A stretch of DNA of 64,000 bases from an uncultured delta proteobacterium (lineage in GTDB: Bacteria; Myxococcota_A; Polyangia; Polyangiales; Polyangiaceae), in contig CAVOKF010000005.1 of assembly GCA_963696385.1 (NCBI GenBank), forward strand, positions 320,001 to 384,000, given 5' to 3'. Shown here one piece after another: positions 57,371-63,408 of this stretch; the first letter of the stretch is position 1; every line of letters begins with the position of its first letter. Below the pieces are notes generated by a model that worked only from the letters and a program-made list of their open reading frames with translations, made no database searches and was not told the origin of the DNA. The position numbers and the translations under genes were made by a program.

Positions 57371-59266
57371 ATGGGTTGGGTCGACCTCTCGTCGACGTTC
57401 GTCGCGTGGGCGGCGATGCTGGCGATGACGGTCTACGTCGTTTTGCCGACATGGGCCAACCGACAGCTGCTCGGCATTCACGATTGGGATCCGCAAGAGG
57501 CCATGCGGTTCCTGACCACGAAGACGATCCTGCATTTCCATCAATTTCCATTTTGGAATCCCTACACGTGCGGCGGGCATCCAGCGTGGGCCGTTGTCGA
57601 GGGCGACACGACGCTCGTATCTCCGTTTCTGCCCGCTTACCTGCTTTTTCCACTGGGGGTTGCGCTGCGGATCGAGCTCGTCGGAAACTCCTTGTTGTCC
57701 GTCGTCGGCACTTGGCTTTTCGCAGGTCGATGGACGCGGAGCCCTGCAGCCCGGGCCTTCGTCGTAGTTGTCTTTGCCATCAATGGGCGCTGGACGCTCC
57801 AAGCGACGGCCGGACATCCTTGGCATTATGCGTATGCGCTCATGCCATGGACTCTTTATTTCTTCGACAGGGCGATCGAGCAAACACTGGATTCGAAGCG
57901 CGCTTTGCCGGACACCATATTCGCCGGCGCGTGCCTGAGCCTGATGGTCTACATGGGCGGGATCTATCCGCTGCCGCAGACCGTCTTCGTCCTCGCTCTT
58001 TATGGAGCACTCTACGGCGTCACGCGACGCGACCTGCGCCCGCTCCTCTGCGTCGTCGCCACGGGAATGGCGGCTTTCGTTCTCTCGGCCCCCAAGCTCG
58101 TGCCCATGATCGAGCTCTTCGCCCGATTCCCACGCCTGACGGACTCGCCAGAGTGGATGGACCTCACGGTCTTCCTCGCCATTTTGACGTCGCGCGATCA
58201 GGACTTTATTTCGCGGCCCGTGGCCACGACGCATTGGGGTTGGCACGAATGGGGCATGTACGTCGGATACGTCCCCGTCGCCCTCATGGCCGTGAGCCTG
58301 CTTTGGGGCCGGGGGCAGCGCCTCGGCGCGCTTCGGTGGACAGCCATCATTTTGATCGTCCTTGGGTTTGGGAGTTTCAACCCGTATGCACCTTGGTCGC
58401 TATTGCACAAAGTGACCGTTTTCCGTTCGCAGCACGTCCCGTCGCGTTGGCTCTACCCCGCACTGCTCGCATCGCTGGCGGTGGCCGCGCTCGTGATCGA
58501 GCGCGCGATGGTCCTTGCTCGTGGATACCGACCTCTTGTCGAATTAGCGGCCATTGTCGCAGTTTTACCTATCGCACGCGATGTCGCGGACGTGGCGCGC
58601 ATTCCGCTCGCGCACATTTTCAGCAAGCCTCCCCCGACGGCTCTCGACTCCATGCAGCCGTTTCATCAGGGATTTCACCTGCCGCCCGCAATCGGATATC
58701 CGACCGGTGGCGAATGGGCCCCGAGCTCGCTTCCCGCGGTCATCGCCAATGTCGGGACGACGGATTGCAGCACGTTTGCCGGATTTCACAATTGGTACAG
58801 AGACCAAAACAATCATGTCGTGGGGCTCGGCGCTCGTGGCCCGGGCGAGCCGGGATATCGAGGCGACGCGTTCATCGTCGAGGGGGTCGGGCATGCCGAG
58901 TTTGCTCGTTGGTCGCCAAACGAAGTGGTCGTTCGGGTTACCGGCGCCCGAAAGGGAGATCACGTGGCACTCGACCAAAACTACGATCCGGGGTGGCTGG
59001 TGAACGGAAGGCCTGCGCTGGCGGTGAGCGACGTCCCGGCTGCCACTCTACAGTCCTCCGACGAGACGGTCGTCTTCCGGTACCGGCCCAAAACGCTCTG
59101 GCTGGGGCTGGCGATCTTCGTCCTCGGCCTTCCGCTCCTGGTCGGAGCAGCCCGGCCCGACGCGGCGCGTTGGGTCGTCAGGCGAACACTTCGCGCGCGA
59201 TTCCCAGAACGGCCTGCTCGACGGCTGCGTCCGACGTCAGGCGCACCGAAAAGCCCAGAGCGCTGA
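57371..59266 (+). CDS. YfhO-like multi-TM membrane protein (probable GT-C glycosyltransferase)
   Basis: HDWD, PFWNPYTCGG, YVG, PSRW, and the C-terminal SPN..QNYDPGW..FRYRP pattern. Confidence 0.8.
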   Translation: MGWVDLSSTFVAWAAMLAMTVYVVLPTWANRQLLGIHDWDPQEAMRFLTTKTILHFHQFPFWNPYTCGGHPAWAVVEGDTTLVSPFLPAYLLFPLGVALRIELVGNSLLSVVGTWLFAGRWTRSPAARAFVVVVFAINGRWTLQATAGHPWHYAYALMPWTLYFFDRAIEQTLDSKRALPDTIFAGACLSLMVYMGGIYPLPQTVFVLALYGALYGVTRRDLRPLLCVVATGMAAFVLSAPKLVPMIELFARFPRLTDSPEWMDLTVFLAILTSRDQDFISRPVATTHWGWHEWGMYVGYVPVALMAVSLLWGRGQRLGALRWTAIILIVLGFGSFNPYAPWSLLHKVTVFRSQHVPSRWLYPALLASLAVAALVIERAMVLARGYRPLVELAAIVAVLPIARDVADVARIPLAHIFSKPPPTALDSMQPFHQGFHLPPAIGYPTGGEWAPSSLPAVIANVGTTDCSTFAGFHNWYRDQNNHVVGLGARGPGEPGYRGDAFIVEGVGHAEFARWSPNEVVVRVTGARKGDHVALDQNYDPGWLVNGRPALAVSDVPAATLQSSDETVVFRYRPKTLWLGLAIFVLGLPLLVGAARPDAARWVVRRTLRARFPERPARRLRPTSGAPKSPER

Positions 59267-59320
59267 GCTTGTCCGGCGTGATTCGCGAATGCGGAAACGT
59301 CACCCGGCCATCCCTGCGCA
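59082..59320 (+). repeat. Direct repeat copy 1 (239 bp)
   Basis: Matches 60437-60674 with 5 substitutions and 1 indel. Confidence 0.97.
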
Positions 59321-59546
59321 GCTCGGCCTGTACGCGTGGGCTGCCATAGCGCCCCTTACTGGCGGCGTGGGCGGCTCGAACCTTTGCGCCAAGACCGAGA
59401 CGCGCTCCCGCTTCACGAGCTGCGTCAGCGCCGCCCGCTCGTCCACCGTCAGATTCACCACGTAGCGTTTTCATGGCCCACCATGGAGCCCGCCCTCGTC
59501 GCCATGGAAAGCAAAACCCGTCGCCTCAATGGATTCGAGGTACTAG
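59308..59546 (-). mobile_element. Chimeric IS remnant: IS630-like left end and N-terminus fused to an IS3-family OrfB fragment
   Basis: End CTAGTACCTCG at 59546; frameshifted MKRYVVNLTVDERAALTQLVKRERVS; then KVRAAHAASKGRYGSPRVQAELRRDG. Confidence 0.78.
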
Positions 59547-60436: not shown

Positions 60437-60674
60437 ACCGGCCCAAAACGCTCTGGCTGGGGCTGGCGATCTTCGTCCTCGGCCTTCCGCTCCTGGTCGG
60501 AGCAGCCCGGCCCGACGCGGCGCGTTGGGTCGTCAGGCGAACACTTCGCGCGCGATTTCCAAAACCGCCTGCTCGACGGCCGCGTCCGAGGTCAGGCGCA
60601 CCGAAAAGCCCAGAGCGCTGAGCTTGTCCGGCGTGATTCGCGAATGCGGAACGTCACCCGGCCATCCCTGCGCA
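60437..60674 (+). repeat. Direct repeat copy 2 (238 bp)
   Basis: Starts on the base after the methyltransferase TAG. Confidence 0.97.
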
Positions 60675-61474
60675 CCGTCGCCGTACTGGATTCGAGCCGT
60701 CTTGAACGGAGACGCCGCGACACAAAGTTCGGCGATGCGCTTGACGCTCGTCACGTCGGCTGGCCCGAGGTTGTAGACGTTCAACCGATCGGGAGCATGA
60801 TCGAGTACGTGGATGAGACCGGTAGCGCAGTCGGTGACGTGCAGATACGGCTTGGCCTGCCGTCCATCGCCGAGAACGTCGAGGTATTCCGGGTGCGCAA
60901 GGAGCTTCTTGCAGAAATCGAGGATGGCTCCGTGCGTTCCGCGCGCACCCACGACGTTTCCAAAGCGGCAGATGTAGCCGGTCATTCCGAAGCACTCGAC
61001 GTACGCAGAGACCAGCGCCTCGCCCGCGAATTTGCTTGCGCCGTACAAGGAAATGGGCAAACGCCCCAAGTCCTCTTCGGCGCAGGCGTCGGGGCGATTG
61101 CCGTACACGGTGCCGCTCGAAGAAAACACAAACCGGCGAATCCCCGAAAGGCGCGCGGCTTCGAGAGCATTGTACGTCGCGATCGTGCCCTGATCCAGAT
61201 CCAACCGCGTCCGCTCGAGGCCCCAGCGTGCTTCGGGATTGGCGGCGAGGTGAAAAACGACGTCGTGCGAGCGCATGGCGCTCGTGAGCGCGTCCAGGCT
61301 GAGCGCGTCTCCCTGGACGAGCGTGGCCCGTCCGCTCGCCAAGGGCTCCGCGATGAATTCTCGTTTGCCGACGCTCAGGTTGTCGAACACGGTGACAGGA
61401 CCGCGCAGCACGAGACCTTCCACTAGGTGGCTGCCGATGAAGCCTGCCCCGCCGACCACGAACGAACGCATCAC
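60533..61474 (-). CDS. NAD-dependent epimerase/dehydratase
   Basis: GGAGFIG, HLAANP, YGASK, RFGNVVG, GWPGDV. Confidence 0.94.
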   Translation of the reverse strand: MMRSFVVGGAGFIGSHLVEGLVLRGPVTVFDNLSVGKREFIAEPLASGRATLVQGDALSLDALTSAMRSHDVVFHLAANPEARWGLERTRLDLDQGTIATYNALEAARLSGIRRFVFSSSGTVYGNRPDACAEEDLGRLPISLYGASKFAGEALVSAYVECFGMTGYICRFGNVVGARGTHGAILDFCKKLLAHPEYLDVLGDGRQAKPYLHVTDCATGLIHVLDHAPDRLNVYNLGPADVTSVKRIAELCVAASPFKTARIQYGDGAQGWPGDVPHSRITPDKLSALGFSVRLTSDAAVEQAVLEIAREVFA

Positions 61475-61618
61475 TTCGCCTCCTGCCTATCGCAAAAACT
61501 TCCAATTCGCTGAGCTCCAAGGAGCGTTTGGACGCGAACTGCGCTCGCGCACGAAACGGGCCCGCTCGTGATTGTAGCCGACGCGAATGTCCCTGAAAGA
61601 CAGGGCATCACTCTCCGG

Positions 61619-62140
61619 CCATGAAACGACCTGTCAAGTTCCCTTTGACGTTTCGGTGCATATTCTCCTTCTGGCTCCCTTGGGTAGTCCAGACCAAGCA
61701 GCGATCCGGGTGAACGTTGCGTCGACGGTCGGTCATCCTGCGGTTCGGGGATCGAGCGTTGCCGTCCGCCAACATGGTCGGTGATTGGTCGGGTGCCCCT
61801 CGCACGGGTGCGGTTCATGGTGACGGGGGCCTCGTGGGCCATGGCTTCGGTTGGTGCCGAGGGCGCATAGCCTCCGTCTGGGGCCTGCTCCTTGCGAGTG
61901 GCCAGGCTGGCGATGATTGCTGTCCCTCGAGACTGCGGCGCGACCCTATGCACGGGCGGGCTCTCGGCAGGGCCCGGTCTTGTACCCCCCCCGGGCCACT
62001 GCGACTGCGGAGTGCGTTTCGCTTTGCTCGGCTCGCAATCCTCCTCGTGACGGTGCCTGCCGTTCTCTCGATCGGGTCTTTCTCAAACGCCGGCCGGGCT
62101 CTCCTTCGCCTTTCCTTCGGGCGTCCAATCTGTCACCATG
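61619..62140 (-). mobile_element. Candidate transposase-free IS110/IS1111-derived element carrying a structured (bridge-RNA-like) ncRNA
   Basis: Three stem-loops at ~61698-61930, an outward TTGACA at 61637-61632, CCATG repeats at both ends, and an internal 14-mer matching the joined ends at 13/14. Confidence 0.5.
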
Positions 62141-62151
62141 GCCGCGGGCAG

Positions 62152-63408
62152 ATGCTCTCGGATGCGGCACGCGGCGGAGTTCAGGCTCCTTGGAGCGGTG
62201 CGCTTCTGAAGCCGGATGCCGAGCTGCAGCTCATCCTGCCAGAGCGCGACGTCGACGATCCCGAGATCTCGATCGTCGTGCCCGCTCTCAACGAAGAACT
62301 CACCATCGGTGACTTCGTCGATTGGTGTCTGCAGGGCCTGCGCAGTGCGGGCGCTCGCGGCGAAATCCTCATTATCGATAGCTCGACCGATGCCACGGCC
62401 GAGATTGCCCGTGCCCGCGGCGCGCGGGTCCTCAAAGCCCCCAAGCGCGGCCTCGGTCGCGCGTACATCGACGCGCTACCGTACATTCGCGGCCGATACG
62501 TGATCATGGGCGATTGCGATTGTACATACGACTTTCGCGAGCTCAGGCCCTTCGTAGAGAATTTCAGGAGCGGCGTCGCATTCGTAATGGGCTCTCGCTT
62601 CCGAGGGTATATCGAGCCGGGCGCGATGCCGCTCCTTCACCGGTACCTCGGAACGCCGGTGACAACTTGGATCCTCAACGTCATCTTCGCAAGCCACTTC
62701 TCCGATATCCACTGCGGGATGCGGGGCATTACGCGCGAGGCGCTGCAGGGGATGGGCTTGCAATCCCAGTCTTGGGAATATGCGTCCGAGATGGTGCTCA
62801 AGTCGGTCCATATGAAGCTTCGAACCGACGAGGTCCCTATCCGTTTTTTGAGAGATCGGGAGGGGAGAGTCAGCCACCACAAGCGCGCTGGGTGGTTTTC
62901 CCCGTGGCAGGCCGCCTGGATCAATCTGCGCGCGATGTTCGTCTACGGGGCTGCATTTTTCCTCTATCGGCCCGGGTTCTTTCTTTTTTTTCTTGGGGCG
63001 CTGCTTCTTTTGCCTCTGTCGTTCGGCCCGCTCACCCTCGGGCCGATCACGTTCTCATTGCATTGGATGTTGCTCGGTCTGACGCTGGCGACCCTCGGGC
63101 TGCAGTGCGTGTATTTGGGCATCCTCGTTCAGGTTTTCTTTGACTACTCGGGCGAGGCAACGAAGCGATGGTTCGCTCGCTTTCCCTACAATCGAACCGT
63201 GGCGCTGTCGGGGCTGGCGTTTATGGCGGGCCTGGCCATTAACCTGTGGCTCCTTGCGCACTACCTCCGGAATAACTTTCGGCTCGCCTCGGGGCTGACG
63301 CTGAACCATTTGGGCGTGACGGGTCTCTTTCTCATGATTGCCGGATTCATCACATTCGCCTTCGTTCTCTTGCTCCAATCGACAACCGTCATCGTGTCGC
63401 GACGCTGA
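62152..63408 (+). CDS. Glycosyltransferase family 2 with C-terminal TMs (polyprenyl-phosphate glycosyltransferase-like)
   Basis: VVPALNEE, DSSTD, RGLGRAY, MGDCD, DIHCGMR, ASEM; start at ATG 62152. Confidence 0.92.
   Translation: MLSDAARGGVQAPWSGALLKPDAELQLILPERDVDDPEISIVVPALNEELTIGDFVDWCLQGLRSAGARGEILIIDSSTDATAEIARARGARVLKAPKRGLGRAYIDALPYIRGRYVIMGDCDCTYDFRELRPFVENFRSGVAFVMGSRFRGYIEPGAMPLLHRYLGTPVTTWILNVIFASHFSDIHCGMRGITREALQGMGLQSQSWEYASEMVLKSVHMKLRTDEVPIRFLRDREGRVSHHKRAGWFSPWQAAWINLRAMFVYGAAFFLYRPGFFLFFLGALLLLPLSFGPLTLGPITFSLHWMLLGLTLATLGLQCVYLGILVQVFFDYSGEATKRWFARFPYNRTVALSGLAFMAGLAINLWLLAHYLRNNFRLASGLTLNHLGVTGLFLMIAGFITFAFVLLLQSTTVIVSRR

Follow-up and report, generated by a model that had tools for sequence, protein, structure and literature searches.

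Between an NAD-dependent epimerase gene, which ends at 61474 on the minus strand, and a family-2 glycosyltransferase gene (PF00535) on the plus strand, the window (the whole stretch of 64,000 nucleotides that was analysed) carries features of an RNA-guided insertion sequence, which raises the question whether one mobile element or something else is found at this locus. The first-pass annotation had proposed a single 522-bp RNA-only element between CCATG repeats at 61619 and 62136, in which an RNA loop reads the element's own circle junction. Its description of the region as IS110/IS1111-derived, bridge-RNA-like and transposase-free, with a -35 box at the right end, was borne out by the relatives, which revealed two nested elements (A and B) in place of the single one. 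Based on sequence comparison, we consider it likely that two RNA-guided insertion sequences of the IS1111 type left a nested, inactive relic here. The region is single-copy in the 6.94-Mb genome G000 according to blastn, a motif scan and nhmmer.

The decayed right end of element A

A BLAST search of 61580-62170 against 60 relatives gave strong matches at three loci in two genomes. At all three close loci, the equivalent of 62049-61826 (70-79%) is followed by 4 nt and then by the equivalent of 61616-61587. As the relatives carry only these 4 nt in place of 61825-61617, this segment is an insert. The interrupted outer sequence, named A, and the adjoining host DNA comprise the following features:

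62049-61826 and 61616 to about 61575, minus strand: decayed right end of A with the last 17 transposase codons and the bridge RNA
61996-62049, minus strand: last 17 codons of the A transposase, HEEDCEPSKAKRTPQSQ, with the stop now TGG; aligns to the end HQEDYDPSKQRRAP in L003, L002 and L011
61855-61934, minus strand: target-binding loop of the A bridge RNA, outer stem 61929-24/61863-58, guides at about 61915-61905 and 61879-61872
61826-61854, minus strand: 5' part of the A donor-binding loop, placed by alignments to relatives; the insert cuts the 3' guide strand
61575-61616, minus strand: remainder of the A donor loop and the next hairpin, 27/30 identical to L002 and L011 and 35/44 to L003
62108-62160, plus strand: host DNA upstream of the glycosyltransferase gene, outside the element, in an unbroken 81% alignment with G025 (L005)

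In L003 the match begins within the final codons of a gene for a 351-aa protein that carries the domains DEDD_Tnp_IS110 (PF01548) and Transposase_20 (PF02371), and this full transposase, which scores 124 bits against NF033542 and hence stays under the cut-off of 140, lies directly upstream of the A RNA. In L003, L023 and most complete loci, the stop codon is followed by homologous RNA, and a protein search revealed relatives in 19 of 300 family genomes. An nhmmer profile of A, built with the window excluded, matched 61934-61827 (E 8e-17). The alignment of 12 A right ends yields two hairpins with large internal loops, in which 96.9% of cells pair and compensatory changes occur in 6 of 24 pairs; none of 500 shuffles reached this, with the reservation that this alignment also served to derive the structure.

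The guides of A can be read in 10 loci with a full set of extractable parts. Between the first loop and the right flank, 7.3 of 8 positions match in cognate versus 3.5 in non-cognate pairs (0/20000 permutations), and the second loop, the donor guide, matches the end of its own element (7.2 versus 5.7, 3/20000 permutations); as the loci are related, these permutation counts and those given below for B are not true p-values. Past the equivalent of 61826 the relatives continue with CACCAGGAG, which is the donor guide and covaries with their own right end. Judged from these alignments, the A RNA is a bridge RNA in the sense of the available part of PMC11208160.

The window lacks the last ~200 nt of A and its terminus, as A ends about 200 nt further on in the relatives, where a short GGGGGTG / CA..CCCC repeat is visible by eye at the termini. 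At 61574, where a duplicated host segment comprising the epimerase upstream region has its edge, the sequence returns to host DNA. On the other side, homology to A beyond 62049, into 62050-62119, did not rise above shuffles (p 0.11-0.41). A scan for the predicted target of the A loop gave no sites at 0-1 mismatches and nine at two. The annotation had left open two options, and one of them, a right-end relic, fits the right end of A.

An inner unit derived from element B

The first match of the insert was to the right end of a different IS110-family element, located in G286. A scan for the exact 19-mer of this end gave 3 genome and 10 metagenome loci: six with both ends 1.5-1.7 kb apart, three right-end fragments, three chance matches and L098, which is the window's own sequence (1673/1674). 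L095, L102 and L106 contain the 19-mer without other B features and were discarded. The parts of the inner element, named B, are:

61826-61616, minus strand: B-derived transposase-free unit with both ends, about 208 bp
61807-61826, minus strand: B left end with core, TCA-NN and the subterminal repeat ATGAA(C)CG(C)ACC, in register with 11 distinct B left ends
61694-61806, minus strand: remnant of the B bridge RNA, in which the 3' strand of the stem of the target loop is followed by the donor loop (61791-61723) with its guide at 61745-61738
61616-61637, minus strand: B right end with the outward -35 box TTGACA (61637-32), the subterminal repeat GGTCGTTTCAT (61631-21), GG and core; six B elements of transposase length share this right end at 19/19 positions

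The 11 distinct left ends of the relatives read (C/T)AG-TCA-NN-ATG(A/G)AACGACC. The left end in the window scores 10.3 bits, a value that 200 of 13.9 million genome positions attain, and its location coincides exactly with the boundary of the insert. Subterminal inverted repeats of 7-17 bp are a trait of the IS1111 group; those of the B relatives are ATGAAACGACC / GGTCGTTTCAT, and in the window the right copy is perfect, while the left copy shows one substitution and one extra base. An nhmmer profile of 17 B relatives matched 61805-61694 at model positions 85-190 only (E 2e-11), and the RNA remnant is 82% identical to L104 over 85 columns and 86% to G447 over 78. The left end is joined directly to the 3' strand of the stem of the target loop. 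The donor loop of B is retained, and its transposase and the larger part of its target loop are missing. L082 (G010, flagged as unpublished) contributed one row each to the alignment of 17 B relatives and to the guide comparison of 12 B loci, and one negative check used G027, which is flagged as well.

B relatives insert at (C/T)AGGA, and CAGGA directly follows the right end in all nine B loci. Their target guides covary with both flanks in 12 loci, the right guide with 6.75 of 8 matches for cognate versus 4.02 for non-cognate pairs (0/20000 permutations). In the window this right target guide is deleted, the B donor guide matches its own end at 4/7 positions and the A donor guide is interrupted. 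Taken together, the alignments to relatives show that A and B are distinct IS110-family elements with a bridge RNA downstream of the transposase, that the right end of A is interrupted by a B-derived insert of ~208 bp with both B ends, and that this insert sits inside the A donor guide at (C/T)AGGA, the motif used by the B relatives. The transposases of A and B share 27% identity and the RNA scaffolds differ.

The outward-facing TTGACA at 61637-61632 on the minus strand is present as annotated. In the predicted B circle it is followed after 17 nt by CACCAT, which agrees with the consensus at 3/6 positions; the relatives have CAAAAT, CAGAAT or CATCAT. A scan of 61400-62300 revealed neither promoters nor terminators, which argues against a hybrid promoter for the epimerase gene.

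A recombinase with PF01548 and PF02371 is absent from the window, which holds only the 17 C-terminal codons of the A transposase and none of B, and no transposase cognate to A or B was found in the G000 assembly. As this assembly is 96% complete and consists of 8 contigs, a cognate transposase could be located in an unassembled part. The best tblastn matches in G000 were two fragments and an unrelated IS110 element with six copies, which matches A at 29% over 132 aa and B at 43% over 67 aa; six of the eight Tnp20 matches are copies of this element with other ends. These near-identical copies (C2:22439, C4:1018524, C4:1163851, C6:23174, C6:106606 and C6:115250; L014-L019) represent a third element of the IS110 family, which encodes an intact transposase (218 bits against NF033542), has ends of its own and is not cognate to A or B. 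The protein of one complete B element, L094 (SCSV01000407.1), scores 253 bits against NF033542. This element fills a 1.7-kb contig from a bin titled Salinibacterium, far from the other hosts, which reflects either misbinning or transfer.

The junction match and the proposed outer bounds

One argument for the 522-bp element was that its joined ends are identical to 61824-61811 at 13 of 14 positions. This match is real, but the loop is not a guide: it is the B left end, and the match results from the fact that the left and right ends of B are inverted repeats. Ten of the 14 letters are the right subterminal repeat of B read backwards, whereas the other four come from host DNA. More generally, the left end of an IS1111 element can mimic a donor guide, as it is the mirror of the right end. 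The real donor guides are located at other positions, namely in the strand interrupted by B in the case of A and at 61745-61738 in the case of B. The supposed flank TGATGCCCTGTC, which the first loop was thought to complement in part, turned out to be RNA of A itself, namely the second half of its donor loop, and is not what the target guide reads. What speaks for the model apart from the match is a nearby GTCACCATG, which occurs 44 times in 6.94 Mb and therefore had a prior chance of ~0.6% to lie within ~1 kb; this value is low but post hoc, and no rearrangement that could account for it was found.

The proposed bounds fared less well. CCATG is found at both 61619 and 62136, and there are 2.2 copies of it per kb in the genome. 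Positions 62108-62800 align with the glycosyltransferase region of G025 (81%, 562/693) with no break at 62132-62140, so that the left boundary at 62140 falls in host DNA and the palindromic empty site CGGCCATGGCCG is refuted. G025 shares CAATCTGTCAC and has GTCAC but not CCATG, and 62130-62145 scores -6.6 bits as a B left end. Given this continuous host homology, we regard a single element of 522 bp as hardly credible.

In the three annotated stem-loops, the strands 61858-63/61924-29, 61883-87/61903-07 and 61702-07/61749-54 pair at 6/6, 5/5 and 6/6 positions, respectively, but 61768-79/61837-45 form only 5 ungapped pairs. The first stem is a helix of the A family, whereas the other two are not family structures: the second pairs one strand of A with one strand of B, and the partner of the third stem's strand in B relatives falls in the deleted part. 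The 251-nt RNA as a whole folds worse than shuffled sequences (z +0.99; 169/200 shuffles as good). A search of Rfam gave two matches, both chance microRNA hits, and a plasmid BLAST gave no match.

Origin of the locus and alternative explanations

We assume that the RNA of a B element directed the integration of this element into the donor guide of A, which would have disabled this guide. The segment between the left subterminal repeat and the target-loop stem of B, with the transposase and the larger part of the target loop, would have been lost before or after integration, further deletions would have removed the left part and the terminus of A, and the remaining parts of both elements would subsequently have drifted in sequence. 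The insertion is not textbook-clean, since 3 nt of A are gone at the left junction and the core is C instead of A at both junctions and also where the target-guide remnant ends. Decay is also indicated by invariant columns, of which 6/35 are altered in the B part (relatives 0-2) and 4/44 in the A part (relatives 0-3) in an audit that excluded L104, and by the A target loop, which folds with a z-score of -0.4 in the window versus -2.3 and -4.2 in relatives. On the other hand, the last 19 nt of B are perfectly kept. If a cognate B recombinase and RNA arrived, they could in principle circularise the ends and create the TTGACA-17-CACCAT promoter, but A-to-C changes are present in the B left end and in both cores.

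Both families belong to a known type of element and are probably dead at this locus. As in IS1111-group elements with a 3' seekRNA or bridge RNA such as ISEc11 and its relatives, in the available parts of the reports (Siddiquee et al., 2024, PMC11187229; Durrant et al., 2024, PMC11208160), the relatives carry a long non-coding end with the RNA downstream of a DEDD transposase, subterminal inverted repeats, a right-end -35 box predicted to form a junction promoter, and loops that match target and donor DNA, here supported by covariation in relatives of both A and B. The window differs in that there is no transposase, two families are nested, invariant bases are changed, A lacks both termini and B lacks most of its target loop. 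According to the accessible part of PMC13626964, excision of IS621 requires bridge RNA and recombinase, and in the accessible part of a survey (bioRxiv 10.64898/2026.08.14.744561) elements with truncated recombinases showed no activity. The same part describes partial IS110 circles and repeated local insertion, which resembles our case insofar as fragments reintegrate and insertion into occupied regions recurs; there, however, sub-fragments or cargo of a resident element are concerned, and here another family in the donor guide of A. A literature search, mostly without subscription papers, found no report of an IS1111 element inside the guide of another. Although the relic as such is of little importance, it is a clear case of one RNA-guided insertion sequence inside the guide of another, and two IS1111-type families with readable, covarying guides were obtained as a by-product.

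The 208-bp B unit could also be a MITE-like non-autonomous element that was born elsewhere and reached the A guide through the trans action of a recombinase and bridge RNA of B. This would be comparable to what is proposed for MITEPpu9/ssr9 of ISPpu9 in Pseudomonas putida, which in the available part of PMC12288879 is likewise a transposase-free unit with IS110-family ends beside a truncated transposase end. A transposase-free mini-element, as proposed in the first-pass annotation, does exist at 61826-61616, but neither at the bounds given there nor with any sign of movement. It has the ends of its parent element, both present and in register and the right one perfect, the target motif fits B and the predicted circle promoter keeps the 17-nt spacing. 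In assays described in the accessible text of PMC11187229, IS ends suffice for cargo movement in trans, and ssr9-only circles form when the transposase is present (PMC12288879, as far as available). However, ssr9 is there described as multicopy, expressed, circle-forming, accompanied by a transposase in the genome and proposed to be a regulatory RNA, whereas the B unit carries half a bridge RNA, occurs once in G000 with no convincing copy in 382 family genomes, has no cognate B transposase in the 96% complete assembly, and is mutated in the left end and core. The fused left-end/stem pattern was detected in only one of 382 other family genomes (G336), without further similarity. We consider movement as a MITE-like unit unlikely.

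A further explanation takes the composite as a working, or recently working, chimeric RNA and element end that combines the A target loop with the donor loop and terminus of B and is expressed in some lineage. It draws on the RNA-library run X20, in which one 248-nt contig (depth 3.4) covers just this intergenic part, spans 61709-61896 across the A-B join and differs from the window by 7 other letters and 2 gap letters, with its first 55 nt unaligned. As this contig agrees with the family at 61864 and still contains the 2 nt lost by the window at 61856-57, a less decayed copy of the composite exists elsewhere, with the caveat that this is a single low-depth contig and that contigs are mute on transcription, strand and ends. 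Moreover, the A and B recombinases are 27% identical with unlike RNA scaffolds, the composite RNA has the unfavourable z-score given above, and the composite was not found by BLAST in 60 relatives, 300 family genomes and 250 order genomes, with 0 pattern matches in viral contigs. We therefore judge a functional chimera very improbable. Read evidence was taken from the contigs of four of 22 listed runs, leaving coverage gaps in X12 and X20 out of account: the complete region is contained in one DNA contig that shows no joint over the insert, and neither such a joint nor a circle junction was seen in any of the four, although contigs drop rare forms.

In its boldest form, B would target the CAGGA that A must carry in its donor guide and so disable a competitor, and the composite of A target loop and B donor loop would be kept in more than one lineage, transcribed, and move as a mini-element or act as a recombined bridge RNA. 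We give this scenario little chance. If the composite were truly expressed or mobile, it would represent natural bridge-RNA loop shuffling or targeting of one insertion sequence by another and bear on the evolution of programmable recombinases. As candidates for further insertions of B into A, 29 pattern matches were obtained outside G000 in 382 genomes, compared with 11 in a reversed control; 18 of the 29 were analysed by BLAST and none had A or B sequence beyond the motif. Matches over the join in G120, G086 and G096 are short and have no transposase nearby, the one in G120 lies in apparent coding DNA, and all were taken as chance.

Transposase-poor relics of this kind seem to be common in this order. 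In L002 (G017:C179), the A right end is accompanied by no more than 17 matching codons, and in G447 (L128 and L131) a B bridge RNA follows a broken transposase and a B-like left end and a whole B bridge RNA are 340 nt apart, without a transposase in between.

The surroundings of the relic contain several repeats. The start of the epimerase gene and its upstream region (61408-61574) are duplicated at C5:385141-385301 of G000 (86%), 3.7 kb apart, and the locus has undergone more than one rearrangement. A direct duplication of 239 bp (59082-59320 and 60437-60674, 97.5%) links the 3' ends of a membrane-protein gene and the epimerase gene. In addition, a 152-bp repeat fragment at 59395-59546, which has seven more copies in the genome (94-96%), is probably an IS end.
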